DNA of 64,000 nucleotides from Bacilli bacterium (GCA_024408295.1 JAKSVE010000001.1:21657-85656), one strand, 5' to 3'; shown: positions 2,653 to 53,476, numbered from the stretch's first letter. The notes: generated by a model not told the origin, from the letters alone. A program made the numbers and translations.

Positions 2653-4713
2653 GTGATCAAGTTAAGCAAAGTAGGAAAGAAATATATTGAAGGGGGAGAA
2701 GAAAGATGGGTTCTCAGGAATCTTGATTTACTACTCCCGACAAAAGGATTGATATCGATCAAAGGAGAATCCGGGAGTGGAAAGTCCACCCTCCTAAATC
2801 TCATCTCCATGATGGAGAAGTGTGATGAAGGAGATGTCTATATCAATGGGCGAAACGCTTCGAAATTAATTGAAAAGGAAAGGGAAGATTTCCGCTTATT
2901 TGACTGTGGCTTTATCTTCCAGCATTTTAATCTTTTTGAGCATCTAAACGTCATAGATAACATTGCCTTTCCTCTCTTGATGTCTGGGGTAAATAGGCGA
3001 ATTGCGGAGGAAAAAGCATCCGAATTGCTCAAAAAATACAAATTGGAGTACCTAAAAGAGCAGAAGACGTCTCTTTTATCTGGCGGGGAAAAACAACGCG
3101 TGGCCATCCTTAGAGCTATCATAAATGAGCCTAAGATCATCCTTGCCGATGAGCCAACTGGGGCTCTGGATAACAAGAATGAAAAACTCGTTATGGAGCA
3201 CCTTAATGAGTATTCCAAAGAGCATCTAGTCATCATGGTTTCTCATAATGACCGAATCGTTAAAAAATACTCTGACAGAATCATTAAATTAAAAGATGGA
3301 GGCATAAGCGATGATTCGAGCCTCCTAAAGAAAGAAGAGACGACAAAAGTCGTAAATAGAGTGAGGAATAATAATTGGGGGTGGATAGCAAATGTTACAA
3401 AAGGATACTTCAAGAAAGATCTCAAGAGGAACATCCTCTCTTTTGCTGGCTCCCTTATATCTTTTTTCGGGATTCTTATTGCTGTTGGGTTCTATTCTAG
3501 TTCCCAAATTACAATCGAGAAGGAAAAGAAGAAGAGCCTGCTCTACACAAGCGCGAGCGTATCGCTTATCAAGGAAGAGGAGATCGAAGGCTCGCCGCTA
3601 ACGTTGAATAGGACCTCAAGACCAAATTACAGCGAACTCGAGGATTTGCTCCAAGGCGTCGCGACAATTGAATGCGACTACTCATATTTCATTCCTTCGT
3701 ATTCTGCCTACTCAATAAATGGTGAATTGAGGGACCCAGTGGCTTTTGCTCCTATAGAAGATATAACCCTCAAGAGCAGAAGTGAGAATATGGTTATCGA
3801 TGGAGCGGCCCCAGAAACCGATTCCCTAGACCGAGTGTTGGTCAACAAAGAATTTGCCTCTTTAATCGGCGAATCCCCAATAAAACATAAGATAAAAATC
3901 ACAAATAGTCTGAAGATTATTGATGGAAATATTGAGGATTCACTGGATTTTTCATTCAGTTTTTATATAGCTGCGGTAGTGGAAGAGTTCTCTTTCCTTA
4001 ATTCTCCAAGAATCTATTACTCCCTGAATTCTATTAAGGCCCACCTCGCAAATCTATATTTGGAGAAGATATCAATTGCAAAGGGCAAGAATTATTCCGT
4101 TTTGGATTACATAGAATCTTGTCCATCCGATAGCGTCTATGGCTCTTATGCCTACAACATCTTTTTCTCGGAGGATAACGCGAAGAGAGTATTTGATATT
4201 CGAGACAGACTGAAAAGAGAAGGGAGCGATCTGGCAATAACTTCTGAGGCACTTGATACAATGCAGACCTTTTCATCTTTAGTCGATGCATTCACCGCCT
4301 CCTTAGCGCCTTTCTTGATCCTAGCACTTATATCATCATTCGCCATAAATTGTTTTACTTCATACTCATCATATCTTTCTAAAAGAAAGGACTTTGCGAT
4401 TATGCACGCATTAGGAGCAAGAGGGGAAGACGTATCTAATATCAATTTATTCGAAAACACTATTGTCTCCATTTCCTCGATGATCGCATCATTGGTTTTG
4501 GGCTATCCATTATCGAGATTGTTCTCATTTCTATTATCTAGAAGTGTGCAGATAAAAGGGCTTGTTGACCTCCATTTGAACGCCTTTGGAATCCCATTAT
4601 TTCCAATCTTGTTGATTCTTGTGTTTGCGTTGGTGTTTCCAATTATCGGAAGCGTTATCCCTCAATACCTAATGAGAAAACAAAGCTTGGTGAAGGAGTT
4701 GTCAGATGAATAA
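2653..4713 (+). CDS. MacB/FtsX-type ABC transporter, fused ATPase-permease
   Basis: Walker A GESGSGKST, signature LSGGEKQRV, Walker B IILADEPT. One TM, a ~290-aa extracytoplasmic region, then three C-terminal TMs. GTG 2653 gives MIKLSKV; in-frame TTG 2647 is also possible. Confidence 0.88.
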   Translation: MIKLSKVGKKYIEGGEERWVLRNLDLLLPTKGLISIKGESGSGKSTLLNLISMMEKCDEGDVYINGRNASKLIEKEREDFRLFDCGFIFQHFNLFEHLNVIDNIAFPLLMSGVNRRIAEEKASELLKKYKLEYLKEQKTSLLSGGEKQRVAILRAIINEPKIILADEPTGALDNKNEKLVMEHLNEYSKEHLVIMVSHNDRIVKKYSDRIIKLKDGGISDDSSLLKKEETTKVVNRVRNNNWGWIANVTKGYFKKDLKRNILSFAGSLISFFGILIAVGFYSSSQITIEKEKKKSLLYTSASVSLIKEEEIEGSPLTLNRTSRPNYSELEDLLQGVATIECDYSYFIPSYSAYSINGELRDPVAFAPIEDITLKSRSENMVIDGAAPETDSLDRVLVNKEFASLIGESPIKHKIKITNSLKIIDGNIEDSLDFSFSFYIAAVVEEFSFLNSPRIYYSLNSIKAHLANLYLEKISIAKGKNYSVLDYIESCPSDSVYGSYAYNIFFSEDNAKRVFDIRDRLKREGSDLAITSEALDTMQTFSSLVDAFTASLAPFLILALISSFAINCFTSYSSYLSKRKDFAIMHALGARGEDVSNINLFENTIVSISSMIASLVLGYPLSRLFSFLLSRSVQIKGLVDLHLNAFGIPLFPILLILVFALVFPIIGSVIPQYLMRKQSLVKELSDE

Positions 4714-18820: not shown

Positions 18821-18906
18821 TGGTGCCCGGGACCGGACTCGAACCGGTATGGTATTGCTACCGAGGGATTTTAAGTCCCTTGCGTCTACCATTTCGCCAC
18901 CCGGGC
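18821..18906 (-). tRNA. tRNA-Leu (anticodon TAA), CCA encoded
   Basis: GCCCGGGTGGCGAAATGG...anticodon loop CTTAAAA...long variable arm...GGTTCGAGTCCGGTCCCGGGCACCA. Confidence 0.93.
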
Positions 18907-18915
18907 ATAATTCGA

Positions 18916-18990
18916 TGGTCCCCCGTGACGGGCTCGAACCGTCGACCCCTTGATTAAAAGTCAAGTGCTCTACCACTGAGCTAACGGAGG
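18916..18990 (-). tRNA. tRNA-Lys (anticodon TTT), CCA encoded
   Basis: TAGCTCAGTGGTAGAGC D-arm, CTTGA-CTTTTAA-TCAAG anticodon arm, GGTTCGAGCC T-loop. Confidence 0.92.
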
Positions 18991-18995
18991 ATGCA

Positions 18996-19071
18996 TGGCT
19001 GGGGTAACTGGATTCGAACCAGTGCGTAACAGAGTCAAAGTCTGTTGCCTTAACCACTTGGCGACACCCCA
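18996..19071 (-). tRNA. tRNA-Gln (anticodon TTG), CCA encoded
   Basis: TGGGGTGTCGCCAAGTGGTTAAGGC..., ACAGA-CTTTGAC-TCTGT, GGTTCGAATCC. Confidence 0.92.
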
Positions 19072-19077
19072 AAAGGG

Positions 19078-19161
19078 TGGTGGGCGAAGATGGATTCGAA
19101 CCACCGAACCCGAAGGAACAGATTTACAGTCTGCCGCGTTTGGCCACTTCGCTATTCGCCC
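19078..19161 (-). tRNA. tRNA-Tyr (anticodon GTA), long variable arm, CCA encoded
   Basis: GGGCGAATAGCGAAGTGG..., loop CTGTAAA, GGTTCGAATCC, acceptor TTCGCCCACCA. Confidence 0.92.
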
Positions 19162-19193
19162 ATTTTTTGCCACACGTTTATCCTCCACGAGGC

Positions 19194-19268
19194 TGGTGGA
19201 TGCTATAGGGTTCGAACCTATGACCCCCGCCTTGTAAGGGCGATGCTCTCCCGCTGAGCTAAGCATCC
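19194..19268 (-). tRNA. tRNA-Val (anticodon TAC), CCA encoded
   Basis: GGATGCTTAGCTCAGCGGGAGAGC, loop CTTACAA, GGTTCGAACCC. Confidence 0.92.
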
Positions 19269-36942: not shown

Positions 36943-36966
36943 AGGGAGATTCGTTCTCCCTTTTTA
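36943..36966 (+). terminator. intrinsic terminator of hpf
   Basis: AGGGAGA TTCGT TCTCCCT then TTTTAT. Confidence 0.75.
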
Positions 36967-37212
36967 TATTCCTTCCAGTAATTTTTGAACGTCATGCTCG
37001 TCCTGAAGACCGGATTTTTCCGCTTCACCAGCCATATCGTCCTGAATGGTTTTCAAAGCGCGAATCAATGACTTTTCCAATACGATTTGATTTTCATTGA
37101 CTGTGAACGATAGATAATCTCCAGGTTTAGCCCCTAGCACATCTAAAACATCTGAAGGGATGGCCACTTCACCGTTTGCATTAATATTTGCCTGTTTGAT
37201 AAACGAATCCAT
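36964..37212 (-). CDS. AbrB/MazE/SpoVT-type DNA-binding domain protein
   Basis: 82 aa. NGEVAIPSDVLDVLGAKPGDYLSF..IVLEK looped-hinge-helix pattern. SD AGGAGG before ATG 37212. Confidence 0.7.
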   Translation of the reverse strand: MDSFIKQANINANGEVAIPSDVLDVLGAKPGDYLSFTVNENQIVLEKSLIRALKTIQDDMAGEAEKSGLQDEHDVQKLLEGI

Positions 37213-37331
37213 GATAGACCTCCTAGAATATGAGCTGAGACAAGATGTTACACGAATCATATCATATCGGTTCATCGTGTCTATACATTTATGGATTATT
37301 TCCAATAATACAGCCACACGACCCTTTTTCG

Positions 37332-37346: not shown

Positions 37347-37658
37347 ATGAAGAAATCCCTGACCAAGAAAACGATACAAGGAAGAGAATACTTCTATCTT
37401 TGCTATAGGACTAAAGGCAAACTTACCACCAAGTATCTCGGCACTGTTGATAGTCCTAAATACAAGAAGTATCTTTTGAGTCTGACCAAAACCGGCGCGA
37501 ATTACGGGTTAAGACGTTCAAGAATCGATAACTGGAAAGCAGGGGTTCCTATTGCCTATATTGAGGATTCCTACATCGTTCTAGAATACAAGAACGGAGT
37601 AAAGGAATATCTCGATTCGAAGGAAAACGTCAAGAAGGTGGTGTTCCCAAATGGATGA
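37347..37658 (+). CDS. hypothetical small basic protein (candidate antitoxin/partner of the downstream kinase-like gene)
   Basis: 103-aa ORF. 8-nt overlap (ATGGATGA) with the next gene. Confidence 0.6.
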   Translation: MKKSLTKKTIQGREYFYLCYRTKGKLTTKYLGTVDSPKYKKYLLSLTKTGANYGLRRSRIDNWKAGVPIAYIEDSYIVLEYKNGVKEYLDSKENVKKVVFPNG

Positions 37659-38154
37659 GGAGAAGAAGCAACTGATCATCGTCGCGGGACCTGAAGCCTC
37701 AGGAAAGAAGACCTTCGCCGAGGTCTTCAAGACCGCATTCCTCCAGGGTTTGCCTGAAGATAATCTATATAAAGGCATCATATCGGGCATGTCTTTCTAT
37801 TGTGTGTCCTCTTTATCCACTTCTGATGAGGTCAAACTAGTTAAATTAGCAAAAGAAAGAGGTTATAGAGTGACCATCTATTTCCTGTTCGCTCCACATG
37901 AGCTTTGTTTAGTGAGAGCAAGACTCCGCTCAATCGTCTCGAAGATTCCGTACAACGAAACAGAAATGAAGGCAAAATACGATTCTTCCCGCAAAAACCT
38001 TGCAGAACTGAAGACATCAACAGACATCGTCTTCTTCATTAGAAATCTCAAGGAATTCGATTTCGTTTCGGCTTTATCGCCTAGCGAATTGACCGCAAGA
38101 ACATACCAACTCACCATTCAAAAGGTCCAACTTTCGGTTGAATTACCGGAGTAA
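37651..38154 (+). CDS. zeta-toxin/COG4185-like P-loop kinase family protein (short, Walker A slightly degenerate)
   Basis: LIIVAGPEASGKKT Walker A-like. ERGYRVTIYFLFAPHELCLVRARLR matches the E-G-Y-x-V..F..l.s.EL...R core of zeta-like kinases. Confidence 0.6.
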   Translation: MDEEKKQLIIVAGPEASGKKTFAEVFKTAFLQGLPEDNLYKGIISGMSFYCVSSLSTSDEVKLVKLAKERGYRVTIYFLFAPHELCLVRARLRSIVSKIPYNETEMKAKYDSSRKNLAELKTSTDIVFFIRNLKEFDFVSALSPSELTARTYQLTIQKVQLSVELPE

Positions 38155-40558: not shown

Positions 40559-40649
40559 TGGCGGAGGAAGAGGGATTCGAACCCTCGCTCAGTGTTACCC
40601 GACTATGAGCTTTCCAAGCCCACCCCTTCGGCCTCTTGGGTATTCCTCC
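40559..40649 (-). tRNA. tRNA-Ser (anticodon GGA), CCA encoded
   Basis: GGAGGAATACCCAAGAGGCCGAAGGGG..., loop TTGGAAA, long variable arm, GGTTCGAATCCCTCTTCCTCCGCCA. Confidence 0.92.
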
Positions 40650-41751: not shown

Positions 41752-43464
41752 ATGAGCAACGTTGTAATGAGCAACTACGTCAGATGGCTATTATGCCCAA
41801 AGACGACAGAAGAAGAGAGAAACACTCTTATTTCAATGAACGCCAAGGAGAAAGATGACGCTTTCTTCCAGGATATCGAATTCGGTACCGCTGGCATGAG
41901 AGGAATCTTAGGCCCAGGCACAAATAGACTTAACAGATTCACAGTCAAGAAAGCATCAATCGCATTCGCATTATATCTCCTTGAAACATTCAAGGATGTT
42001 GAGAAGAAGGCTGTTGCTATCGCTTACGACAACAGATGGTATTCTCCTGAATTCTGCGAATTGTCAGCAGAAATTCTTAACGATTACGGAATCGATGCAT
42101 ATTACTTCGATTCATTGAGACCAACACCAGAATTATCATTCGCGGTCAGAGAACTCAACTGTATCGGTGGTATCATGATCACCGCATCACACAACTCAAA
42201 GGAATATAATGGCTATAAAGTCTATGATGAGACAGGCTGCCAGTTAGTTCCTGAGAAGATTGAAAGAATGATTGAAATCCTCAACAACCTTCCAGATGAA
42301 TTGACAGTCGAATCAAACCCAGTCCCAGAAAGAGGAACATCACACATCATCGATTCATCTTTAGATGATAAGTATGTCGCATTAGTTGAAACCCTCCAGA
42401 TCAATCCTGATCTTAAGAAGGAAGGCTTCAAGATTGTCTATACCCCTCAGCACGGTACATCATACGAGAACGCTATGCGCGTCTTCAATGAACTCGGATA
42501 CGATGTCACTCCAGTTGCTGCTCAGTGTGAGCACGATCCTAACTTCGGCGCTACCCTCTCACCAAACCCAGAGACCGCAGAAGCATTCATCGAACCAATC
42601 AAACTCGCAGAAGAAATCAATGCTAACCTCATCGTTATGACAGACCCTGACGGCGATAGATGCGGACTTGCATACAATAACGGCACTGAATGGGTCAGAT
42701 TGACAGGTAACGAATCAGCTGCTCTTCTCATCGACTATATCATGTCAAATAAGGCTGCTCGCGAAGAACTCCCTGCAAATGGCGCTCTTTATGACACAGT
42801 CGTCACATCAGACTTAGGAAGAAAGATTGCAACTTCATACGGAGTCAATGTCGAATCATTCTTAACAGGCTTCAAGTACATCGGCCACCAGATCGACCAC
42901 TACGAGAAAGTCGGCAGTGGACCAGAATTCGTCTTCGGATATGAAGAATCATACGGCTGCTTAGTCGGACCATTCGTCAGAGACAAAGACGGAATCCAGG
43001 CAATCACACTTTACTGCGAAATGGCTCTCTATCACCACTTACAGGGCAAGACCCTTGGTGAGGCATTCGTCGAACTTCAAAAGAAGCACGGTTTCCACAA
43101 GGCAACAACAAAGTCATTCATGTTCCCTGGATCAGATGGCAAGGACAAGATGAACTCAATCATCGACTATGTCAGAAGCAACCCTCCAAAAGCACTCAAA
43201 GACACTGCTGTTGTTGAGATCTATGACTTCTTAAGCGATGAGAAGATCGATTGCAAGACAGGTGAGAAGACGCATCTCGACCTCGATTCATCAAACGTCT
43301 TGAAGTTCGTCTTCGAAGATTCAAGCTGGTTAGCTATCCGTCCTTCAGGAACCGAGCCAAAGTGCAAGGTTTATGTTGAAGGAACATCAACCACCGCTGA
43401 AGGCGCAACAGAAAAGGCTCTTGGCATGATTGCAGAATTCTGCGCTTATGCCGGAATGGAATAA
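41752..43464 (+). CDS. pgcA: phosphoglucomutase / phosphomannomutase (PgcA-type)
   Basis: Phosphoserine loop TASHNSKEYNGYK, Mg loop DPDGDR, GYEESYG sugar loop. Confidence 0.92.
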   Translation: MSNVVMSNYVRWLLCPKTTEEERNTLISMNAKEKDDAFFQDIEFGTAGMRGILGPGTNRLNRFTVKKASIAFALYLLETFKDVEKKAVAIAYDNRWYSPEFCELSAEILNDYGIDAYYFDSLRPTPELSFAVRELNCIGGIMITASHNSKEYNGYKVYDETGCQLVPEKIERMIEILNNLPDELTVESNPVPERGTSHIIDSSLDDKYVALVETLQINPDLKKEGFKIVYTPQHGTSYENAMRVFNELGYDVTPVAAQCEHDPNFGATLSPNPETAEAFIEPIKLAEEINANLIVMTDPDGDRCGLAYNNGTEWVRLTGNESAALLIDYIMSNKAAREELPANGALYDTVVTSDLGRKIATSYGVNVESFLTGFKYIGHQIDHYEKVGSGPEFVFGYEESYGCLVGPFVRDKDGIQAITLYCEMALYHHLQGKTLGEAFVELQKKHGFHKATTKSFMFPGSDGKDKMNSIIDYVRSNPPKALKDTAVVEIYDFLSDEKIDCKTGEKTHLDLDSSNVLKFVFEDSSWLAIRPSGTEPKCKVYVEGTSTTAEGATEKALGMIAEFCAYAGME

Positions 43465-43482
43465 ACTCCAAAGATAAAATAG

Positions 43483-43522
43483 GGAGACGTTATTTAGGAT
43501 TTTCTGAATGCGTCTCTTTTTT
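43483..43522 (+). terminator. intrinsic terminator of pgcA (long loop)
   Basis: GGAGACG...CGTCTCT then TTTTTG. Confidence 0.55.
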
Positions 43523-43574
43523 GATGAAACCATTTATTGATTGACATTATTCCTTGGTTAAATACCATTTAATT

Positions 43575-46500
43575 ATGGATACATTTAATTTGCCCCTAAC
43601 TTTAACTGACCTCACTGACAATAGCGTTATTGATTTGAATTGTGCTGTCGCAATTTCAGAAATTAAAGCGACCGTTTCTCTATATGACCTCGGTCCTAGG
43701 ATACTGAATAGAGCGCGGTTGTTCATGCCTGTGAATGTTGCGGCTTCGTTGGCTCGCATAAGCTGCTTTGCTACAGGATGTTATATTGATGTTGCCGAAA
43801 TCATTGAGATAGATGGTGTATACTATGCCATTTTTGACATTACCAATCGTTTAATTCACTTGAGTTCGGGAAATATCGATTTGACTTTCCGCCTATCCGG
43901 AAGCGCTCCGGGAATCCAATTTGATTTTACCCCCGGGATAGCGGAGGCATTTGTCCAGGCAGAGACGAGGGAAGCTATTTTCTTACCAAAGGAGACTATT
44001 TCCCTAATTTCTTCTCTGAATGATTCGTTTGCGGTTTCAGTCACTCCGATTAATTCTTCTGTTAGTGTTGTTAGACCCCTGTTCAGAGGATTGTTAAAAG
44101 AAGAATACTGTCTTGTTTACAATGCATTTTACAATGGCACGGCATATTCTTCCGTTTTTCCTCTAGGATGGGGTATGAGCGAATTGCCTGAATGGGATGA
44201 CGATGAAAAAGTGCTCTACGATGGCGAAAAGAGACCGATAAAGTTCGTACCGACTCTTAATAACCAAAACGTTCTAATAGATTCAATGGGCAGTAGAATA
44301 TGCGCAAAGCTGATGTCTTCTACCGTTGAGATAACCAAGATTGGCGAGGACGGTGCTATCGTATTTGACAGAAACTCGGGCAGGATTTCGTCAAAAACTT
44401 CTTTTGGAAGGATTACTTCGTTTGCGTATCAGACGGGTAGAATCGTGATTTCCGACCCATACGGGAATGTGATTTCCATTCGTAGAGTGCTTAACCAGCT
44501 CCTCATCTCCCTAAACAGTGGGGATATATCATTTTCTTGCGACATCTATGGTCCGTCTCAAGTTTCTATATTTGAACAATCTGCTGGTGTTGGGCGAGGT
44601 TCTGAGACGATTACGTATGGAAATTATGGGAGAGTGATCTCTGTCGAATCGTTTGACGGGGAGAAAATAGAGCTTGAATATTTTTCCAGTGGGAAAATTA
44701 AAAAAATATGCAAGAGAAGCGCAACGGGTGAGTCTTTTGACAGTTCTGAATTTTCCCATTATTCTGATTCATTTTCTATTACCGATGAATATGGGAAAAC
44801 TATTGCGTATCGCTTTGACGATTCCCTTGAGATAGTGTCATCTTTTGATGCTTCATCGGGAAATAGATTATTTATTGGCAAGCGAAACGCGACTGACGAT
44901 GATTACGTCATGGCCGACGACCCAGTCGTTCTGCTGAGTGATGATGGCCACGATTTTATCTCTGTAACAGGCATTAATAATCCAAATCATTCGGTGGGAG
45001 GTTCTGAAGGCATTCACGCCACTATCGAAGGAGCTGTAATCAACGACTCGGAGGAATATATGCTCTCATTGGTCGTATACGGCCATGCCCCTTCTCCGTC
45101 TAGATCTGGCGCGAACTGTAGAGGAGTTGAAGTGTCAGTTCGCTTAGAATACGGAAGAAGCGGACCACAGCCGTTGCAACCAGATAATATAAAAATTGAA
45201 GCCGACCGATATAATGTCGTTTGCGCTAGCTTACCAATAAAATCTTCGTACCAAGGTCGTCCGCTTACCTCTGTAAGTGCATATTTAATAGTTACGGATG
45301 AGTCTTATTCCACTTTTGTCTTATTTGCAACCATTACGAGGGCGACTAAGATTAAGAGATCCTTTGTATATTTTGAAAATGAGTCCGAAGATTTAAACCA
45401 TCTTCGCATATTCAATCCATCGAGAATTATTGGGACCGACGGTATAGACCTGGTCGGAAGGGATATAAGAGTCACGCAATCGGACGCTGTTTCCAATATG
45501 TATTCGTCCATGAATGGCAATGATATCGTATTTTTTGATGATGGGAAATATGCAGTATATGGCATCTCCGTGCGCTATTTTGACGGCCAATACCGTTTAT
45601 CATCTAATGCCGATTTCTCTTTTTCTTCCAATGTATCCTCCGAATGCGTAAGTGTTACAAGGTATGTCCGTGAAGGACTTAGGCTGAACGTGGAGTCGAT
45701 ATTATTCTCTCGCAATACCCAAGACGTGAGAAAAAACTTTGTGATGCTCGACAATTTAGGCAGGATTATCCGGGAAGAGTGTGACTCATCCGAAACTGTA
45801 TACCGTTATAATTCTAGCGGATTAATAGAATCTGTATCTCAAATTGGTCAGGGTTCAACGGAATATTATTACGACGATAGCGATAGGCTTATCTCAGAGC
45901 AGCATTCTAATAGATCATTATCCTTCGCTGTGTTCTATGCGTATTACGGGAATTATGAACGAGCATGTTTCTCCCAAAGGAGCGGATGCCCATACGAATA
46001 TTTCGAATTTAGTGACGGATATGGTCCAATGAGTTCGTTGATTCGATGGTTCGGGACAAACTACTTTACGCGACACCAGGATGGTAGAATCGCATCAGCC
46101 AGCGACGGAAATCGTGTCGCCTCATTTGGTTACAATCATAAGAAAGAATGTATAGGGGCTTCGTGCTCTGGGGCAATAGAGAGAATTGATTCCGAAACTC
46201 AAACGGAAACCAGATGGCTGCTCAATTCATATTCCTGTGTGATAAGTAGAGACGAATACGGGAGACCGTACGAATACAGTGTAAACGGTACTCTAAAATC
46301 CAGACTGATATATTCCGACACGGATATATACACTAATTATTTTGATATAACGTATGATGACGAGAGAATCCATTCCTCCAACTCATCAAAACTCATTTTT
46401 AGATTCGAGACACTCGATAGTACGATGACGCATTATCTCTATGATTCATTTGGCCGCGTGATAGACGTTGACGTCATGGAGAGCGAATCATTGAGGCAAT

Positions 46501-48308
46501 GCCAAACTTCATTGAGGTTCAATGATTTCGGCGAGCTTTCCTCTAGACGTTTTTCGTCCAGGCTTCTTGGGGACGTTGTGATTGTTGAAAATTTTTCATA
46601 TTCCCTAGGCGGGAGACTAAGTGGTCATGAGTCATCTGTTGAAGAAGAGTATGCGCAAACGTCTTGTCTAGATTGTGTGGAATATGATTATTTAGGCGCG
46701 GTTGTCGGAAGAACAAGAACATGTGGTGAATTATATCTATCCGAGTCTTCATCGTACTATATTCAAACGATAGATGCCGAAGATTTCAAGGTGTCGTCGG
46801 TTGAAATTTCGGTTTGTGGGCGTTCCGTATGTGGTTTCTCAGTAAAGAGGGATTCTTCCGGATTCATTGTCGCCGATTCGAATTCTTTTGTCGGACAAGG
46901 AGAAAAATTATATGAATATGACGACTTGCGTAGGCTGTCGAGAGTTGTCGATAGTGATGAGGGGTTGAGCATCGAGTACTCGTATAATCAGTCCGGAGAT
47001 ATTGCGAGCAAAACTATCCACGCATTTGGAGCGAATGGCGACGTCTCATCTGAAACGGTGCTTTATACGTACGATTCTCTTCACAGGATTATTAGCTACG
47101 GCAGTGAGCAAATATCGTACAACACATACGGCTATCCGACCAACTATCGTGGTATGCATATGTCTTGGGTGGCAAGGAATTTGGTTTATGCAAATCGATT
47201 TGGCAGATATGTCAGCTTCTCATATTACTCCGATGGCAGTCGTTTCAAAAAGACATTGAGTGATAAAGAAGTTACATACGTATATGACCATGATAGGCTT
47301 GCTGGCGAGAGTATAGCGTACGCAGACGGGACCGTCTGCAAAGTTGTCTATGTCCGCGGAATCGATGGTTTAGTCAGCGCATTAGTGGTGGATGGCGTCT
47401 GGCATTTCCTCGTTAGGAATCTTTTTGGCGATGTCGCCGCGATCTTGTCGCAAGACGGTTCGCTCGAATGCAGCTACCGCTATGACCCATTTGGCGTGCC
47501 GACCGTGTTGGATGCCGATGGGAATGTTGATACAAGCCTAAATTCGATTGGCAACCTCAATCCTTTCAGGTATAGGGGATATTATTATGATGTCGAGACA
47601 GGCCTCTACTGGTTATCCTCGCGTTACTATGATCCAGAGATAGGAAGATTCATAAGTCCTGATAGTGTGGATTGTCTTGATCCGACAAGCATAAACGGAT
47701 TGAACCTTTATGCATACTGCAACAATGATCCGGTGAACTACTGTGACCCTTCTGGGCACATAGCTGTATCCGCTATATTAATAGGAGCCCTTATTGGATT
47801 TGTGACCGCGTATCTATCAGATGTATTTTATAATTTCCGAGACGGAGTAGATTTATCTGATTTTAATACCTTTAAAGATAATTGGCTGAAGTACATCGGT
47901 TCAACAATCGGCGGTGCGGTTGGGGGCCTTGGATCTGGCTTGCTTACAACGGCACTTGCGAGTGGATTGGGGAACGTTATTGAAGCATCTTTTGCTGGTG
48001 ATATTAAATCCTTTGGTGATGTTTTTCTTCAATTTTCGATAGGTGCTGTAATAGGCGGAATTGGTTTTGGGGTTAGTAAAGTCATTTCTTCGCATTTTGC
48101 AAACAAAAAAATATACGGATTATTGGGAAACCTTTCAGATAATGCTAGGGTTAACAAAAGGCTCGCAAATTTGGGTTATAAGAATTTGAAAATAGGTCGT
48201 GATGGATTTGCTAAAGTGTATTCTACTTTGTTTCAAGATTATGGATTTAATCTTTTGAAAGACTGCATATCGTATTCGTACGATTTTGCTACCGGTCTAA
48301 TATTTTGA
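43575..48308 (+). CDS. RHS/YD-repeat polymorphic toxin-like protein with glycine-zipper membrane C-terminal domain
   Basis: Numerous YD repeats. RHS core ...RYRGYYYDVETGLYWLSSRYYDPEIGRFISPD...NLYAYCNNDPVNYCDPSGH, followed by a 182-aa hydrophobic Gly-rich tip. ATG 43575 is preferred over in-frame TTG 43554, which lies inside the putative promoter. Confidence 0.85.
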   Translation: MDTFNLPLTLTDLTDNSVIDLNCAVAISEIKATVSLYDLGPRILNRARLFMPVNVAASLARISCFATGCYIDVAEIIEIDGVYYAIFDITNRLIHLSSGNIDLTFRLSGSAPGIQFDFTPGIAEAFVQAETREAIFLPKETISLISSLNDSFAVSVTPINSSVSVVRPLFRGLLKEEYCLVYNAFYNGTAYSSVFPLGWGMSELPEWDDDEKVLYDGEKRPIKFVPTLNNQNVLIDSMGSRICAKLMSSTVEITKIGEDGAIVFDRNSGRISSKTSFGRITSFAYQTGRIVISDPYGNVISIRRVLNQLLISLNSGDISFSCDIYGPSQVSIFEQSAGVGRGSETITYGNYGRVISVESFDGEKIELEYFSSGKIKKICKRSATGESFDSSEFSHYSDSFSITDEYGKTIAYRFDDSLEIVSSFDASSGNRLFIGKRNATDDDYVMADDPVVLLSDDGHDFISVTGINNPNHSVGGSEGIHATIEGAVINDSEEYMLSLVVYGHAPSPSRSGANCRGVEVSVRLEYGRSGPQPLQPDNIKIEADRYNVVCASLPIKSSYQGRPLTSVSAYLIVTDESYSTFVLFATITRATKIKRSFVYFENESEDLNHLRIFNPSRIIGTDGIDLVGRDIRVTQSDAVSNMYSSMNGNDIVFFDDGKYAVYGISVRYFDGQYRLSSNADFSFSSNVSSECVSVTRYVREGLRLNVESILFSRNTQDVRKNFVMLDNLGRIIREECDSSETVYRYNSSGLIESVSQIGQGSTEYYYDDSDRLISEQHSNRSLSFAVFYAYYGNYERACFSQRSGCPYEYFEFSDGYGPMSSLIRWFGTNYFTRHQDGRIASASDGNRVASFGYNHKKECIGASCSGAIERIDSETQTETRWLLNSYSCVISRDEYGRPYEYSVNGTLKSRLIYSDTDIYTNYFDITYDDERIHSSNSSKLIFRFETLDSTMTHYLYDSFGRVIDVDVMESESLRQCQTSLRFNDFGELSSRRFSSRLLGDVVIVENFSYSLGGRLSGHESSVEEEYAQTSCLDCVEYDYLGAVVGRTRTCGELYLSESSSYYIQTIDAEDFKVSSVEISVCGRSVCGFSVKRDSSGFIVADSNSFVGQGEKLYEYDDLRRLSRVVDSDEGLSIEYSYNQSGDIASKTIHAFGANGDVSSETVLYTYDSLHRIISYGSEQISYNTYGYPTNYRGMHMSWVARNLVYANRFGRYVSFSYYSDGSRFKKTLSDKEVTYVYDHDRLAGESIAYADGTVCKVVYVRGIDGLVSALVVDGVWHFLVRNLFGDVAAILSQDGSLECSYRYDPFGVPTVLDADGNVDTSLNSIGNLNPFRYRGYYYDVETGLYWLSSRYYDPEIGRFISPDSVDCLDPTSINGLNLYAYCNNDPVNYCDPSGHIAVSAILIGALIGFVTAYLSDVFYNFRDGVDLSDFNTFKDNWLKYIGSTIGGAVGGLGSGLLTTALASGLGNVIEASFAGDIKSFGDVFLQFSIGAVIGGIGFGVSKVISSHFANKKIYGLLGNLSDNARVNKRLANLGYKNLKIGRDGFAKVYSTLFQDYGFNLLKDCISYSYDFATGLIF

Positions 48309-48322
48309 TTGGAGGGACAACT

Positions 48323-48961
48323 GTGGTTCTGTCATTTCTAATTATTATTGATTTTGCCTTATGTATCTTATTACTTGCACTGCTTGTTGCGGTTGCATTT
48401 ACTAGCTATTTTTATTACTGCATAGGTATATTTGCGTTGCTTTTGTTCACTTATCTTTTGGGCAGTACATTTTTTCACATCTCCTCGAAAAGGGCATTGA
48501 TCGGCAAGGAAGATAATTATTACAATTTTCCAAAATATTATGAACGCGAGATAGAGGAGATAACTGTGTGCAAGAAAAAGAACATTTGGGAGATGCACAT
48601 CGGTGGTAATACTATAAATTTTGTATTTGGTCACTACTTGTTTCAAAAGAGTTTCATAAGAGCGTATGTAGTCCGAAATTTAATGTATAAACACGTCGAC
48701 AGAAAAAGAGAGCTTAGGAATCTTATGAATTACAGATTCCAATCGCCAAACAGCAATAACGTGGATATAGTTTTCATCTCCGAAGATAAAAGGAAAAGAA
48801 TTAGAGTGTGCAATTGCGGACAAATTCAGAACACCATTTTATCTAGAGCCATAACAAAATCTCATTTTTACAAACTATATTTTTCGAATGTGACATATTA
48901 CGCTTTCATGAATCAAATCGTTCATATTAATGAAAAAATATATGATAGTTTTGTAGACTAA
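48323..48961 (+). CDS. two-TM membrane protein, candidate cognate immunity protein
   Basis: SD GGAGGG 6 nt before GTG 48323, 15 nt after the RHS stop. Two N-terminal TM helices and a ~150-aa basic cytosolic part. Very AT-rich. Confidence 0.65.
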   Translation: MVLSFLIIIDFALCILLLALLVAVAFTSYFYYCIGIFALLLFTYLLGSTFFHISSKRALIGKEDNYYNFPKYYEREIEEITVCKKKNIWEMHIGGNTINFVFGHYLFQKSFIRAYVVRNLMYKHVDRKRELRNLMNYRFQSPNSNNVDIVFISEDKRKRIRVCNCGQIQNTILSRAITKSHFYKLYFSNVTYYAFMNQIVHINEKIYDSFVD

Positions 48962-49198
48962 TCTTCTGTGAGACAAACGTACATTCTTAAATCGTGACAC
49001 AGCCATCAGTCTATGAATAATGTGAAGCAAATAGTTGGAATAGCGATATTAGAATTGTTGTGGAAGAACTCTTCTGGCGGCCAGTGCCTAATATGTGAGC
49101 TTTGGAATGTTGAGCGAACAGGGGATTGCAACTGCAAGATATGTTCTCTTTAGTATAGTTTGCCGTGTGACATTAGAACGTTTTTGCGGAGTTTAATG

Positions 49199-50026
49199 TC
49201 ATGCTATATCGTCAAAATGCAGTTCTGATATTTCGTTGGCAGGTAGCATCTTCTCTAATTCTATTGCTATCCCGTCATTGTTATTGTCTTTTTCTGTGAT
49301 TATTGCATCTTCAGGGATTATTTCTAGGTTTGTGTTGCTCATTAGATAGCGAACACCAGCCTCATTAAGCATCTCCAAATCATTGACCGAATCACCAAAA
49401 GCAATCGTGTCTTCTTTCTTTATCCCTAGCTGTTCTTGAATGTATTTAAGACAAGAGCCCTTGTTGACTCCGTCGATATATAACTCGCTATAGGAGGAGC
49501 CACACCATTTACGCCACTTTATTGGGTAGTGGGAGTTAGCAATCTCCTCAAGTTTTCCTAAATCTTTGGCGTTACAGTCGAATATAGCCGTATAGACGTC
49601 TTCCTTGAGTATTTCCTTGAAATCTCCATAAATCGGCCTCATATAAGGGAAATATGCATTAAGATATTCTTTACGGAACATTAAGTATGTTTGACTCTCA
49701 GATTCTGAGCAGAGGTCGGTAATGATACCTTTTGCTCTATCAACAATATCAAGCACATCATCTTTCTTGAGGATATATTTTAGTTCCTTGAAAGACGAAT
49801 CGCATGGATTGAAGGTATGCATTCCGTTTAAGGTGATTACAGGGCCGTTGCATCCTAGGTCCTCATAGTAATCTTTTATGGCTCTCCAAGGACGCCCGCT
49901 TGAAATGACGACGATATGCCCGTCTTTAATTGCCGTCTGTAGGACCTCTTTGGTTTTGTTTGTTATCTGGTGCTTAGAATTCAGGAGTGTTCCATCCATA
50001 TCCAAGGCTATTAATTTCTTATTCAT
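49199..50026 (-). CDS. Cof-type HAD-IIB phosphatase
   Basis: DMDGTLL motif I, GDSVNDLEM motif IV. Start taken at MNKKLIALDMDGTLL. Confidence 0.85.
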   Translation of the reverse strand: MNKKLIALDMDGTLLNSKHQITNKTKEVLQTAIKDGHIVVISSGRPWRAIKDYYEDLGCNGPVITLNGMHTFNPCDSSFKELKYILKKDDVLDIVDRAKGIITDLCSESESQTYLMFRKEYLNAYFPYMRPIYGDFKEILKEDVYTAIFDCNAKDLGKLEEIANSHYPIKWRKWCGSSYSELYIDGVNKGSCLKYIQEQLGIKKEDTIAFGDSVNDLEMLNEAGVRYLMSNTNLEIIPEDAIITEKDNNNDGIAIELEKMLPANEISELHFDDIA

Positions 50027-50160
50027 TGTCGTGACGTTAATATTCCGCACATATTCTACATACTTAACAAGCGAACGTGAATAGATGGTGAAACGGTTGG
50101 CCCTATCGTCTGACTAAGGCTGAGAACCCTATTTTCTATTATGTGTGTGCATGCGATAAT

Positions 50161-51258
50161 ATGAGCATGTCTACCCCACAGTTCCCATTTACTAATAAAG
50201 ATGTCACAACGACATTGGTGAAAAGATACTCAACCGTCTATCTAATTGTCTTAAGCATCATATCTCTATTTGAAGTCTTCATGATTGCTAGAGGCATATT
50301 CGTCTTCGATTTTGCAAGAATTAAGCACGTCCTTTATTTTGTGTCGTATATATTCTTGCTCACGATGTCTTTGGGGGAAGTCCTAATCATATTCCTGAAC
50401 AAGAAGGGGAAACTTAAAGACAGCTGGCTATTTTACTCCATGTATGCCTATTGCCTTGCGATTGTTATCTGGGCATCGTTGATATCGATTCTCGACTCTA
50501 ACGGCTCAGACATCCCATTTGTCTATTTCACCATCATCATCACTATCGCGGGATTGTTATTCATCAACCCTTGGTACTATATCTCAACGGTTCTTGCCTC
50601 ATTCACCGCCGTATTCCTAATAAGCAACAAAGATGACCTACTCTCGGGCCTTTCTGGCGGTGACCTCATCAACGACATAGTCTTTATCGTCATGTGCATA
50701 CTTGTCGCGGTTAGACAATATAAGTCCACATTGAAACAAGAGAAGTACGCCTGGACATTAAATGAGCTCAATTACACAGACCACTTAACCGGCTTAGGGA
50801 ACGAGAGAAAGTATTTCGAGGTCATCGAAAGGATTAACTCCGGCATAAGCAAAGGACGAAAGAAATTCGCTGTTACGGTAATAGATGTAAACGGAGTCAA
50901 AGTCACGAATGATAAATACGGACATAGATTCGGTTGCCATTTAATCGTCACAACCGGAAATATCCTCCCAACAATCTTCAAGTCAAGCACCTTATTCCAT
51001 ATCGGAGGAGACGAATTCGTCGGCATAATCGAGGGCGAGGATTACACTCATCTCGACGCAAGATTAAGTGAATTCAAAGAGAAGCTAGAATATTCCGATA
51101 TTGAATTTGAAGGAAAGCCGTTGTTCTTAAGTGCCGCAATCGGTATAGCAAAATGCGAAGATGAAAGCTCTTATAGAGAAGTCTTCCAAAAAGCCGATGC
51201 TGCGATGTACGAGGATAAGAAGATAGTCAAAGAGACTCACAACATTCCTAGTAGATAA
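50161..51258 (+). CDS. membrane-bound diguanylate cyclase (GGDEF domain)
   Basis: About 6 N-terminal TM helices, then LTGLGNERKYF...HIGGDEFVGI. Start uncertain: ATG 50161, or in-frame GTG 50143. Confidence 0.85.
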   Translation: MSMSTPQFPFTNKDVTTTLVKRYSTVYLIVLSIISLFEVFMIARGIFVFDFARIKHVLYFVSYIFLLTMSLGEVLIIFLNKKGKLKDSWLFYSMYAYCLAIVIWASLISILDSNGSDIPFVYFTIIITIAGLLFINPWYYISTVLASFTAVFLISNKDDLLSGLSGGDLINDIVFIVMCILVAVRQYKSTLKQEKYAWTLNELNYTDHLTGLGNERKYFEVIERINSGISKGRKKFAVTVIDVNGVKVTNDKYGHRFGCHLIVTTGNILPTIFKSSTLFHIGGDEFVGIIEGEDYTHLDARLSEFKEKLEYSDIEFEGKPLFLSAAIGIAKCEDESSYREVFQKADAAMYEDKKIVKETHNIPSR

Positions 51259-51262
51259 GAAT

Positions 51263-51296
51263 ACCTCCTGCCTAGTAGTGGTGGGAGGTTTTTTCT
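51263..51296 (+). terminator. intrinsic terminator of the GGDEF gene
   Basis: ACCTCCT...GGGAGGT then TTTTTCTG. Confidence 0.75.
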
Positions 51297-51427
51297 GTCA
51301 CCTTCGATTCAGACACGCTATCAAATAGATAAACCGGTAAAAATTAACCGAATATTCTAGTTTCAGTTATACTCAAATTAAATTTGTGTATAATTAAACC
51401 GCTAATCTAAAAAGGGAGGATTAAAGC

Positions 51428-52294
51428 ATGTTAGTTTCTGCAACAGAAATAATCAATAAAGCTCACGAAGGCCACTATGCTATCGGAGCATTCAACACAA
51501 ACAACCTCGAATGGACAAAGAGCCTCTTAAAAGCAGCTCAGGACGCTAAGGCTCCAATCATCATTCAGACATCAGAAGGCGCAGCTAAATATATGGGCGG
51601 CTTCAAGATGGTCGTTGACATCATCAGAGATTTACACGATTCAATGGGAATCACAGTTCCAGTCGCATTACACCTCGACCACGGAACATATGAAGGCGCT
51701 AAGAAGTGCATCGAACTCGGCTATACATCAGTCATGTTCGACGGCTCACACTACAGCATCGAAGAAAACATCGAAAAATCAAAGGAGATCCTCGCTCTTG
51801 CTCATGCAAAGGGAATCTCAGTCGAATGTGAAGTCGGTGGCATCGGCGGTGTCGAAGACGGAGTCGCTTCACAGGGTGAATTAGCAGATCCAGCAGAGTG
51901 CAAGATGGTCGCAGCTCTCGGAGTTGACTTCCTCGCATGCGGTATCGGAAACATCCACGGCAAGTATCCAGAGAACTGGGCTGGCTTAAACTTCGAAAGA
52001 CTCGCAGAAATCAACGCTGCAGTTGATGGCAAGCCACTCGTCTTACACGGTGGTTCAGGCATCCCATTCGAGCAGACAGACAAGGCTATCAAGAACGGTG
52101 TTTCAAAGATCAACGTCAACACAGAACTTCAGTTAGTCTATGCAGCTGCTATCCGTAAATACATCGAAGCTGGATTAGACCTCCAGGGCAAGGGCTTCGA
52201 CCCACGTAAGCTCATGAAGCCAGGATTCGATGCAATCACAGAACAGACAATCGCTCTCATGAAGGCATTCGGCTGTGCTGGAAAAGCTGAGTAA
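51428..52294 (+). CDS. fba: class II fructose-bisphosphate aldolase
   Basis: YAIGAFN, LHLDHG, VLHGGSG motifs. SD AGGGAGGA. Confidence 0.95.
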   Translation: MLVSATEIINKAHEGHYAIGAFNTNNLEWTKSLLKAAQDAKAPIIIQTSEGAAKYMGGFKMVVDIIRDLHDSMGITVPVALHLDHGTYEGAKKCIELGYTSVMFDGSHYSIEENIEKSKEILALAHAKGISVECEVGGIGGVEDGVASQGELADPAECKMVAALGVDFLACGIGNIHGKYPENWAGLNFERLAEINAAVDGKPLVLHGGSGIPFEQTDKAIKNGVSKINVNTELQLVYAAAIRKYIEAGLDLQGKGFDPRKLMKPGFDAITEQTIALMKAFGCAGKAE

Positions 52295-52322
52295 TCAACT
52301 CTAGGCCAACATTGATGAAAAC

Positions 52323-52356
52323 ATACCTCCATCCGTGATGATGGGGGTATTTTTTA
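52323..52356 (+). terminator. intrinsic terminator of fba
   Basis: ATACCTCCAT / ATGGGGGTAT 10-bp stem then TTTTTAAT. Confidence 0.85.
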
Positions 52357-52370
52357 ATGCCAAAATCGGC

Positions 52371-52403
52371 GAAAGAAAACGGGCATCATCGCTGTTGCCC
52401 GTT
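52371..52403 (-). terminator. intrinsic terminator of trpS
   Basis: Minus strand: AACGGGCA...TGCCCGTT then TTCTTTC. Confidence 0.75.
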
Positions 52404-52420
52404 GTTAGGTTTGTATCAGT

Positions 52421-53410
52421 TTATTCGAGTGTTAACAATCCGACTGCGTTCTGAACACGCTTAAGGGTGACGTTGGCGATTGCGTTTGCCTTCTTTGCGC
52501 CTTCCTTTAAGACATCGAGATATTCGCCTGATGCGATAATCTCTTCATATCTTGCTTTAAATGGAGCGAGTTCTCTTTCGACCGTGTCAGCGACTTCCTT
52601 CTTGAAGTCTCCGTATCTTGTGCAGCCTTCGAAGTGCTTTGCGGCTTCTTCGATTGTGATATCGTTCAACGCTGCATAGATGGTTAAGAGGTTTGAGACG
52701 CCTGGCTTATTGACTGGATCGTAGTAGACAAGCGCTTCCATGTCTGTGACTGCCGACATGATTTTCTTTCTGATGGTCTTCATGTCATCCTTGAGGAAGA
52801 TGTCGCCTTTTGGATCTGATTTGCTCATCTTCTTGGTTGGGTCACTAAGTGACATGATTCTTGCTCCGACCTTATTGACCTTGCCTTGTGGCATGACAAG
52901 GATGTCGCCATATTTATGATTGAAGCGGTGGACTAAGTCTCTAGCGAGTTCAATATGCTGGAGCTGGTCTTCGCCAACTGGAACTGTCTTTGCATCGTAT
53001 AAGAGGATGTCCGCAGCCATAAGGACTGGGTAAGCGAATAATCCTAAGCCGATTTCTTTGTCATTCATCTTAGCGGATTTATCCTTGAACTGAGTCATTC
53101 TTGATAATTCGCCCATATAGAGATAGTTCTGGACGATTGAATTCAATTCTGAATGGGCAGAGACGGTTGACTGAAGGAAGATTGTTGCCTTCTTTGGGTC
53201 TAAGCCAGATGCAAGATAGAATGCAGCGATATCGCGTGAATTTTGTCTAAGGACCTCTGGGTCGATAGGTAATGTCAACGCGTGTAAGTCTGCGATGAAA
53301 ATGAAGACTTCTCCGTTATCCTGGAAGTCCTTGAAGTGCCTAAGCGCACCGATGTAGTTGCCAAGAGTCAATTGGCCTGTTGGTTTAATGCCTGATAATA
53401 TACGTTCCAT
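52421..53410 (-). CDS. trpS: tryptophan--tRNA ligase
   Basis: SGIKPTGQLTLGNYIGAL (HIGH region) and KMSKS. 329 aa from ATG 53410. Confidence 0.93.
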   Translation of the reverse strand: MERILSGIKPTGQLTLGNYIGALRHFKDFQDNGEVFIFIADLHALTLPIDPEVLRQNSRDIAAFYLASGLDPKKATIFLQSTVSAHSELNSIVQNYLYMGELSRMTQFKDKSAKMNDKEIGLGLFAYPVLMAADILLYDAKTVPVGEDQLQHIELARDLVHRFNHKYGDILVMPQGKVNKVGARIMSLSDPTKKMSKSDPKGDIFLKDDMKTIRKKIMSAVTDMEALVYYDPVNKPGVSNLLTIYAALNDITIEEAAKHFEGCTRYGDFKKEVADTVERELAPFKARYEEIIASGEYLDVLKEGAKKANAIANVTLKRVQNAVGLLTLE

Positions 53411-53476
53411 GTGGGAAATTATAAAACAATATAAGTTTATTGCAAAACTTAAAGCCAAAAGTTTTATAATAAACTC

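Follow-up and report, generated by a model that had tools for sequence, protein, structure and literature searches.

Gene content and boundaries of the locus

We analyzed 64,000 nt of the genome of a Bacilli bacterium (GCA_024408295.1 JAKSVE010000001.1:21657-85656; this whole stretch is referred to as the window) and describe a two-gene locus within it, consisting of an RHS/YD-repeat polymorphic toxin gene and a small downstream gene, here called the immunity gene. Positions are those of the window, and residue numbers count from the ATG start of the RHS gene unless TTG numbering is stated. The locus and its neighbours are as follows:

41752-43464, pgcA, upstream neighbour of the RHS gene
43482-43522, plus strand, intrinsic terminator of pgcA, a hairpin (GGGAGACG...CGTCTC) followed by a T-run (U-run), at the left edge of the inserted module
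43541-43568, plus strand, promoter-like site (TTGACA-16 nt-TACCAT), the best promoter-like match in the region (10/12)
43575-48308, plus strand, RHS/YD-repeat polymorphic toxin gene, 1,577 aa from ATG, an intact, single open reading frame (ORF)
48311-48315, plus strand, Shine-Dalgarno (SD) sequence GGAGG of the immunity gene, just past the RHS stop codon (48306-48308), an arrangement of translational coupling
48323-48961, plus strand, immunity gene, GTG start, 212 aa, with two N-terminal transmembrane (TM) helices and a soluble domain of ~150 aa
48962-49198, non-coding gap of 237 bp between the immunity gene and cof
49199-50050, minus strand, Cof-type HAD phosphatase gene (cof), downstream of and convergent with the immunity gene

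The RHS ORF can alternatively be read from a TTG codon at 43554, which gives 1,584 aa and the same stop at 48308 (plus strand); an in-frame stop and the pgcA terminator lie just upstream, and the protein therefore has no further N-terminal extension. Its exact sequence is also recorded in NCBI assembly GCA_024500545.1. The protein scored 32.4 bits against Pfam RHS_repeat (PF05593; cut-off 22; best stretch at residues 752-784 in TTG numbering), 30.3 bits against NCBIfam TIGR01643 YD_repeat (cut-off 15.8) and 80.3 bits against NCBIfam TIGR03696 Rhs_assc_core (cut-off 32.5; residues 1310-1402 in TTG numbering). A preliminary description of this DNA had claimed a long ORF with YD repeats and an RHS core and had proposed the Pfam RHS_repeat and TIGR03696 searches as a check; all three profiles lay above their curated cut-offs, in agreement with that claim. 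Matches of the C-terminal core in the PDB included RhsA, TccC3, YenC2 and Tse5, and the only PHROGs match was a generic RHS-core family with a 2,333-position profile; neither PHROGs nor the PDB gave a match outside the RHS core. On these defining sequence features, we assign the protein to the RHS polymorphic-toxin family.

The preliminary description had also placed the locus alone between the housekeeping gene pgcA and a Cof phosphatase gene, bounded by the pgcA terminator and a 237-bp gene-free gap. The mapped flanking genes, the terminator fold and the gap itself bear this out. The terminator hairpin folds at -17.7 kcal/mol (z = -2.7 compared with shuffles); our intrinsic-terminator scan overlooked it because of its long loop, and direct folding recovered it. 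The gap holds no orphan toxin or immunity remnant, and its RNA fold was indistinguishable from those of shuffles.

The promoter-like site carries a perfect TTGACA, and its -10 box TACCAT ends 6 nt 5' of the ATG at 43575, which has no SD sequence. At least six other SD-less genes in the window show the same arrangement of -10 box, 6-7 nt and ATG: TAnnnT -10-like hexamers were located 6-7 nt 5' of the ATG upstream of 18269 (minus strand), 38203, 53477, 57791 (minus strand), 57838 (on the 58200 side) and 59809 (minus strand), in addition to 43575. This layout suggests that leaderless mRNAs may be widespread in the host. Because other SD-less genes share it, we interpret the RHS transcript as leaderless and as starting from a promoter that belongs to the gene itself, in keeping with the native style of the genome.

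Shell, core and N-terminal domain of the RHS protein

The RHS protein can be divided into the following segments, in which P0001, P0002 and P0036 are homologous RHS proteins:

43575-44156, plus strand, N-terminal orphan domain, aa 1-194, acidic, no signal peptide
44157-44873, plus strand, first shell segment, starting with FPLGWG, aa ~195-433 (hhalign to P0001, BLASTP to P0036)
44874-45734, plus strand, non-repeat insert of ~290 aa in the shell, aa ~434-720, boundaries approximate, no family match
45735-47480, plus strand, main YD-repeat shell, aa ~721-1302 (homology to P0001 and P0002)
47481-47759, plus strand, RHS-associated core with aspartyl autoprotease, aa 1303-1395 (TIGR03696 and RhsA alignment)
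47661-63, D1363 (in FISPD), and 47745-47, D1391 (in DPSGH); DPSGH spans 47745-47759, with predicted cleavage after H1395
47760-48305, plus strand, C-terminal toxin tip, aa 1396-1577, 182 aa, 14% Gly

The core ends in ...DPVNYCDPSGH, a PxxxxDPxG ending. When it was aligned to RhsA of P. protegens (7q97), D1363 and D1391 fell on the catalytic residues D1324 and D1346, and the Arg and two catalytic Asp of RhsA were all found to be represented. In RhsA, mutating D1324 or D1346 abolishes self-cleavage (PMC8765631). The self-cleavage-type DPxG(H/L) motif noted in the preliminary description is thus present, as DPSGH and exactly where it had been placed.

The closest full-length relatives of the protein are P0001 and P0002, two full-length metagenomic RHS proteins that share 28% and 26% identity, respectively, with the shell over ~700 aa (aa ~740-1395). 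The first shell segment (aa 195-433) was aligned by hhalign to aa 569-827 of P0001, which bears a signal peptide (E = 8e-5). From this homology, the shell is predicted to form a closed beta-cocoon around the tip. The insert can be aligned only loosely to the corresponding part of P0036; the CBM-type inserts of P0001 and the mosquito protein SGS1 (PMC9935623) suggest, by analogy, that it is possibly a surface or receptor module.

The N-terminal region, the insert, the tip and the small downstream protein have no match in Pfam or NCBIfam, and aa 1-200 gave no hit in either even at E = 10. PADLOC likewise returned no match for the whole RHS protein or the immunity protein. An exhaustive phmmer search with the first 744 aa against 1.84 billion representatives identified one real homologue, P0036 (plus a 65-aa fragment), a 1,589-aa RHS protein at locus L012 with 25% identity over aa 14-428 of the window protein. 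The third member of the N-terminal domain family is an RHS protein on the IMG/VR contig L015. The domain was found in these three proteins only, and all three are without a signal peptide. A profile built from the three sequences retrieved nothing from a 5.8-billion-protein set, in which candidates were probably swamped by low-complexity words; a scan of metagenome DNA revealed no more family members, and a PDB profile search with the N-terminus gave no match. In a low-confidence AlphaFold2 model (pLDDT 30), the N-terminal 200 aa appeared as beta strands and not as a helical bundle. FDIT-like and PxLxVxY-like strings seen by eye, together with the CBM96 domain of P0001, had raised the idea of a CBM96/DNRLRE domain at the N-terminus; we rejected it (hhalign probability 0.5%; no Pfam hit at E = 10).

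The L015 family member (L015:6674-10933) stops just 5' of the DPxG motif (...YCGNDPVM, then a stop codon) and so lacks a toxin tip. A subtilase gene, a helix-turn-helix gene and a MobL relaxase gene lie 3' of it, and the tip was probably lost through insertion of a mobile element.

The toxin tip and the immunity gene

The 182-aa length that the preliminary description gave for the variable tip was confirmed. A TM-like helix, IAVSAILIGALIGFVTAYL, begins immediately after the cleavage site and is followed by the glycine-zipper segments GSTIGGAVGGLGSGLLTTALASGLG and AVIGGIGFG and by a more polar tail of ~80 aa. In total, the tip has three hydrophobic segments and eight matches to the motif [GAS]xxxGxxx[GAS]. 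Each of its six homologues (48-62% identity) is either an RHS C-terminus or an orphan RHS fragment, and no zipper glycine varies among the seven members of the tip family. Between strains (compared with L046 and L047), the tip shows 10 substitutions, seven synonymous and three non-synonymous (dN/dS 0.13). No match to the tip was found in Pfam, in NCBIfam or among PDB sequences beyond the RHS core, and none was found on viral contigs. On its sequence, the tip is likely to be membrane-active, and of an ordinary kind.

Among the RHS relatives retrieved, whether signal-bearing or not, most start the post-cleavage region with a hydrophobic, Gly-rich, TM-like helix (L009, L012/P0036, L042; P0001, P0002), and the RHS C-terminus at L042 gave a weak hit to the Romo1 glycine zipper. 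In this group of RHS proteins, membrane activity of the tip may be general.

The small ORF described earlier as tightly coupled to the RHS gene is real, with its GGAGG at the RHS stop. Its start is likely the GTG at 48323, not the TTG at 48305; the GGAGG lies seven nt upstream of that GTG, and 212 aa is also the length assigned by gene callers to the orthologue in strain L013. The ORF has a hydrophobic stretch over its residues 1-61. Between strains, the gene is intact and constrained with and without the toxin (dN/dS 0.14-0.17): compared with L013 it shows 10 synonymous and six non-synonymous changes (dN/dS 0.14), and compared with L046 and L047 the ratio is 0.16.

The pairing of the two genes recurs elsewhere. 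In L009, the ORF next after the tip homologue P0034 has 30% identity to the immunity protein over 205 aa, an immunity homologue also comes after a tip homologue in L010, and in L037 a 212-aa ORF is located directly 3' of the tip match. Since tip homologues are followed by immunity homologues at other loci, the tip and immunity genes travel as a cassette, and such joint travel is the hallmark of a toxin/immunity pair. The architecture proposed in the preliminary description is borne out by this recurrence in L009 and L010, and we are highly confident that the two genes are a toxin and its immunity gene.

At L009 (L009:1-18080), five orphan C-terminus/immunity cassettes, including one of the present tip family, come after a signal-less RHS protein of 1,484 aa, and the array adjoins divergently oriented phage terminase and portal genes. 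The window contains no other RHS or immunity fragments and no orphan C-terminus/immunity array.

Strain variation and composition

We compared the locus with the equivalent site in related genomes, a check that the preliminary description had suggested. In three related species (L003, L004 and L005; PgcA identity 82-85%), the order is pgcA-(cof)-trpS, with neither an RHS nor an immunity gene; L003 is without cof, and in L005 an unrelated ORF of 160 aa separates pgcA from cof. The locus is thus not conserved in the clade. A GGDEF gene (50143-51258) and a fructose-bisphosphate aldolase gene (51428-52294) were also absent from L003 and L004, and the whole pgcA-trpS interval (41752-53458) is variable between related species.

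The locus also varies within the species. Strain L013 (98% DNA identity) lacks exactly the 4,409 bp between two copies of an 8-bp microhomology:

43751-43758, plus strand, left copy of the microhomology GGCTCGCA, deletion endpoint in L013
48160-48167, plus strand, right copy of GGCTCGCA; the 4,409 bp between the copies are missing in L013 and L014

What remains in L013 is 61 RHS codons, a frameshift, the last 46 codons of the tip and an intact immunity gene, and the same 65-aa RHS stump is found in a second NCBI assembly (L014). L046 and L047 retain the RHS 3' end. A frameshift affects the immunity gene of both L044 and L045, splitting it in L044 into 58 and 154 aa. L044 (94-96% nt identity) also carries a second RHS gene (L044:2308-7654) between cof and the GGDEF gene, equivalent to window positions ~50086-50151. 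Its product of 1,573 aa is without a signal peptide and differs from that of the first RHS gene in its N-terminus and its hydrophobic tip, and a separate TM immunity gene (205 aa) accompanies it. Because strains gain and lose the module and L044 has a second RHS gene, we regard the pgcA-trpS interval as an RHS hot spot. The horizontal acquisition proposed earlier was accordingly supported as an accessory acquisition, absent in L003-L005 and variable within the species. No direct or inverted repeats above chance flanked the insert, and neither an integrase nor a transposase was present around it.

With respect to composition, the codon usage of the RHS gene was the least native-like of the 55 genes in the window (z = -2.8), with fractions of 0.38 for ATA, 0.71 for TTT and 0.36 for CCG, against 0.14, 0.23 and 0.08, respectively. 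Its total GC (0.423) equals that of the window (0.427), whereas the immunity gene is AT-rich (GC 0.33). Therefore, the foreign composition claimed earlier stands for codon choice only, and not for GC. Taken together with the profile searches and the domain searches reported below, none of the three results that the preliminary description had named as contrary to its reading was obtained: the RHS core and repeats were detected, no standard secretion signal or LXG domain was found, and the locus was not conserved across the clade with native codon usage.

The next most atypical codons in the window were those of two large genes at 2647-7483, each an ABC-type ATPase/permease fusion (688 and 925 aa), with a mean log relative usage of about -1.26 against a mean of -1.01; this region may represent a further acquired block. 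Five tRNA genes are clustered at 18821-19268 on the minus strand (Leu-taa, Lys, Gln, Tyr, Val), and single genes for tRNA-Leu, tRNA-Ser and tRNA-Ser are located at 32034, 40559 and 63437. The tRNA-Ser gene at 40559-40649 is ~3 kb upstream of the RHS insertion, with no integrase present. A small ORF at 36964-37317 (minus strand) resembles, by eye, an AbrB/SpoVT-type antitoxin, and a 167-aa protein encoded at 37651-38154 (plus strand) matches the Zeta_toxin family (30.4 bits, cut-off 22.3); the two may be a toxin-antitoxin remnant.

Delivery features and host

We searched for features that could direct the RHS protein out of the cell, calling signal peptides by a heuristic based on N-terminal charge and the best 12-residue hydropathy. 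By this heuristic, no Sec signal was found: the first 25 residues have a net charge of -4 and the best 12-residue hydropathy is 1.56, compared with 2.5-3.0 in the signal-bearing P0001 and P0002 and in a lipoprotein encoded in the window. Pfam and NCBIfam detected no LXG, WXG100-type, PAAR, VgrG, SpvB or Tc domain in the protein, and PF03534, PF12256 and PF12255 gave no hits, unlike in P0010 and P0026. The 64 kb contain no type VII (T7SS) or type VI secretion system (T6SS) genes and no Tc, holin, endolysin or phage genes, and no large gene that could encode a TcA partner lies beside the RHS gene. The absence of a signal peptide, LXG/WXG, PAAR, T6SS, T7SS and Tc partner, stated in the preliminary description, was therefore upheld by the heuristic, the domain profiles and the gene content of the window.

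Among the relatives retrieved, 6 of about 15 complete N-termini are likewise signal-less (L009, L012, L015, L021, L023 and L042), and signal peptides are present in L007, L008, L016, L024/25, L027 and L035. The loci of the window RHS, P0036 (L012) and L015 have no conserved neighbour in common. RHS relatives were found on 21 viral-labelled IMG/VR contigs.

The nearest named relatives of the host are 'Bacilli bacterium' metagenome-assembled genomes from horse faeces; another near genome, L001, whose contig has 41% GC, is labelled 'Faecalibacillus sp.'. The window encodes GGDEF, FeoB, MgtE, PduL and YlbF proteins and a lipoprotein. The earlier suggestion of a reduced, possibly wall-less host found no support, as nothing in the window indicates either property.

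Proposed function and alternative explanations

The locus is, with good probability, a functional two-gene RHS polymorphic toxin/immunity module for antagonism between bacteria. RHS identity, the core with its catalytic residues, the joint variation of tip and immunity gene, the insertion and strain polymorphism, purifying selection and the lack of known export tags are directly observed; the cage fold, its cleavage, the pore-forming activity, protection by the small ORF and expression are what we infer from them. Reasoning by analogy, the module is most likely a Tse5/Tsi5-like membrane-depolarising pair in a lineage of uncultured gut Bacilli. A YD-repeat shell beginning at about aa 195 and broken by the ~290-aa insert would enclose the 182-aa tip, and the aspartyl autoprotease (D1363, D1391) would cut after DPSGH, leaving the tip free inside the shell. 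The shell would hold the tip harmless in the producer cytoplasm. In a target cell, the hydrophobic glycine-zipper tip would enter the cytoplasmic membrane and dissipate the membrane potential; this pore or depolarisation step is somewhat favored over its absence. The co-translated, membrane-anchored immunity protein would shield the producer and its kin at the membrane. The module itself is an accessory insertion in the variable pgcA-trpS interval, probably with its own leaderless-type promoter, and is gained and lost among strains, some of which retain the immunity gene alone. The counter to a channel-forming effector is nearly always a membrane protein (PMC12744356), and a protein with two TM helices is the usual form of immunity against them (cf. 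PMC12744356). We adopted the Tse5-like mechanism because a membrane-type immunity protein suits a channel-forming effector and because Tse5 provides a precedent.

Several observations weigh against this interpretation. The RHS protein has no recognisable export determinant and the window no secretion genes, and the extracellular role is therefore assumed from the behaviour of the family. Neither the tip nor the immunity protein could be matched to a described family in Pfam or NCBIfam, and a Gly-rich hydrophobic composition by itself is no proof of pore formation. The AlphaFold2 model of the tip, based on seven sequences, was all-helical with a pLDDT of 44, and that of aa 1-760, based on a two-sequence alignment, had a pLDDT of 30; both values are too low for the models to be used. 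Sister strains have lost the RHS gene or carry a frameshifted immunity gene, and the module is therefore dispensable. In addition, the RHS start codon is without an SD sequence and the codon usage of the gene is poor.

The manner in which a signal-less RHS cage would leave the cell divides the alternatives. To our knowledge, RHS export from Gram-positive cells has been described only as Sec-dependent (WapA) and, by inference, through type VIIb secretion (T7SSb; LrhA). We rank lysis-type release about level with a dedicated system located elsewhere, and both ahead of a truly new route. In the first of these tentative answers, the cytoplasm would be the site of cage synthesis and holin/endolysin-type or prophage-driven lysis, limited to a subpopulation, would set the cage free, similar to a type X secretion system, in which case no signal would be needed. 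The signal-less RHS-cage Tc toxins of Yersinia entomophaga are freed in this way (PMC10847048), and the RHS relatives on the 21 viral-labelled contigs, the phage terminase and portal genes next to the signal-less L009 array, the match of the core to the 2,333-position PHROG profile and the signal-less N-termini of 6 of about 15 relatives point in the same direction. However, the window has no holin, endolysin or prophage genes, the tip was not found on viral contigs, and IMG/VR contigs can carry host flanks, with L015 resembling an integrative element and not a phage. Release through a dedicated non-Sec system whose genes lie in another part of the genome, such as the T7SSb proposed for Listeria LrhA, is an unlikely but reasonable possibility: N-terminally truncated LrhA variants exist without partner genes and with targeting unknown (PMC10327511), glycine-zipper membrane toxins are typical T7SSb cargo (PMC12744356), and the analysis covers 64 kb of the genome, outside which secretion genes could lie. 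Against this, no LXG or WXG100-type domain was detected in the protein, no small helical partner genes are present where pgcA and its terminator lie directly upstream, the N-terminal 200 aa were modelled, with low confidence, as beta strands, and the loci L012, L015 and L044 are likewise without such neighbours. The view put forward in the preliminary description, an undescribed export route for a ~180-kDa RHS cage, seems to us decidedly improbable; in a wider form, a set of gut Bacilli would use such a route, and the orphan, apparently beta-rich N-domain would be a targeting, receptor or cell-surface module. Among 1.84 billion representatives, a single distant homologue of the first 744 aa was retrieved, L015 carries a third family member, and all are signal-less; the same species has a second, unrelated signal-less RHS protein at a neighbouring site (L044); and no known trafficking domain was detected (Pfam, NCBIfam), with PHROGs and PDB matches limited to the core and none from PADLOC. 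Nevertheless, a missing match is not evidence for a new machine, lysis and T7SSb exist as known alternatives, and the family loci have no conserved neighbour gene in common.

The remaining alternatives dispense with export. There is little chance that the gene is a decaying or inert remnant, an RHS gene minus its signal-peptide region that is no longer exported or used. Signal-bearing homologues do have 300-570 extra N-terminal residues, the gene has no SD sequence and atypical codon usage, L013 and L014 carry a deletion of the RHS gene, and a frameshift interrupts the immunity gene of L044 and L045. However, a stop-free ORF of 4.7 kb is unlikely to last without selection, the tip has a dN/dS of 0.13 (seven synonymous and three non-synonymous changes), the catalytic residues have been preserved, a promoter-like site of its own serves the gene in the native leaderless layout, and the signal-less architecture recurs in distant genomes. 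An intracellular role, with the pair acting as an abortive infection or addiction module and not as an exported weapon, would agree with the lack of an export signal, with the resemblance of the pair to a toxin/antitoxin arrangement and with the phage or mobile-element genes near some relatives, yet we consider it very improbable. PADLOC gave no match, and every characterised RHS C-terminal toxin that we know of acts outside its producer. Moreover, toxin-less strains retain the immunity gene, and immunity kept after toxin loss is more readily explained by protection against neighbours than by addiction.

RHS toxins are a major class of bacterial weapons. What the present locus adds to the polymorphic-toxin repertoire is an unannotated N-terminal domain and an unannotated tip/immunity cassette that is probably membrane-active. 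Signal-less RHS proteins with unannotated N-domains recur in gut Bacillota, twice in one species, and offer loci for studying how such cages exit Gram-positive cells. Three strain states were found, namely toxin with immunity, immunity only (after a clean microhomology deletion) and frameshifted immunity; actual use of the toxin among kin in the horse gut would be expected to give such a pattern. Should export prove to occur by lysis or through a distant T7SS, the locus would be an accessory weapon of the ordinary sort, and so far nothing shows its export to be extraordinary.

Comparison with known systems

WapA-type RHS proteins (Bacillus subtilis, Streptococcus suis) open with a Sec signal peptide and bear long extensions at the N-terminus. 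The window protein shares its phylum-level setting with them and with P0001 and P0002 and, like them, has a YD shell, an RHS core, a variable C-terminus and an immunity gene downstream. P0001 and P0002 also have an N-terminal Sec signal peptide and long N-terminal extensions, whereas the window protein has an acidic N-terminus without a hydrophobic region and a shell that begins after ~194 aa; unlike WapA-type loci, the present one has no orphan C-terminus/immunity array. A closer parallel in this respect is Listeria LrhA, a signal-less RHS toxin of Bacillota (~1,650 aa) with a TM-containing immunity protein encoded downstream (PMC10327511). Truncated LrhA variants without the targeting region exist, and their export is unexplained (PMC10327511). 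However, LrhA adjoins essC8, has an N-terminal region that is helical, as well as DUF6531, and is preceded by three small WXG100-like genes (PMC10327511), none of which is found here. Because the defining N-terminal and neighbourhood features of each class were looked for in the protein and in the window and were absent, the protein falls outside the WapA (Sec), LXG/LrhA (T7SSb), PAAR-RHS (T6SS) and TcB/TcC classes.

Mosquito SGS1 (PDB 8FJP), an RHS/YD shell protein of bacterial ancestry, likewise has no classical signal peptide and has the core Arg and two Asp that catalysis requires (PMC9935623). Its helices right after the cleavage site are stored in the shell and predicted to become TM, and receptor-type domains are inserted on its shell (PMC9935623). 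A profile of the tip family reached the post-cleavage residues 2689-2822 of SGS1 (E = 6e-4), a match that is suggestive only, as the signal is largely shared RHS core and Gly/hydrophobic composition. In contrast to the window protein, SGS1 is eukaryotic, comprises 3,364 aa and carries beta-propellers and lectin domains.

The T7SS toxins TspA, TelE and EsxX are membrane-depolarising and have [GAS]xxxGxxxG zippers (PMC12744356); the tip here has such zippers and is predicted to act likewise. Their membrane immunity proteins are often orphaned in toxin-less strains (PMC12744356), a parallel to the state of L013. These toxins are delivered by LXG and Lap/WXG and are not RHS-caged, and no sequence similarity to the tip was detected.

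The nearest functional analogue would be Tse5 (RhsP1) with Tsi5 of Pseudomonas aeruginosa. Unlike Tse5, which is a Gram-negative T6SS effector with a VgrG-linked N-terminus, the present protein comes from a Bacilli lineage and has no PAAR, VgrG or T6SS, and neither its tip nor the immunity protein has detected sequence similarity to any deposited family. In the Tse5 system, the RHS shell shields the pore-forming C-terminus in the producer, and therefore only the membrane protein Tsi5 is needed as immunity (PMC12744356, citing PMC9637101, PMC10684867). The locus described here has the same predicted organization: an RHS shell with an aspartyl autoprotease that would enclose a hydrophobic C-terminus, whose membrane-depolarising activity is likewise predicted, and a membrane immunity protein encoded immediately downstream, with a cage that would likewise spare a cytoplasmic immunity protein (PMC12744356).

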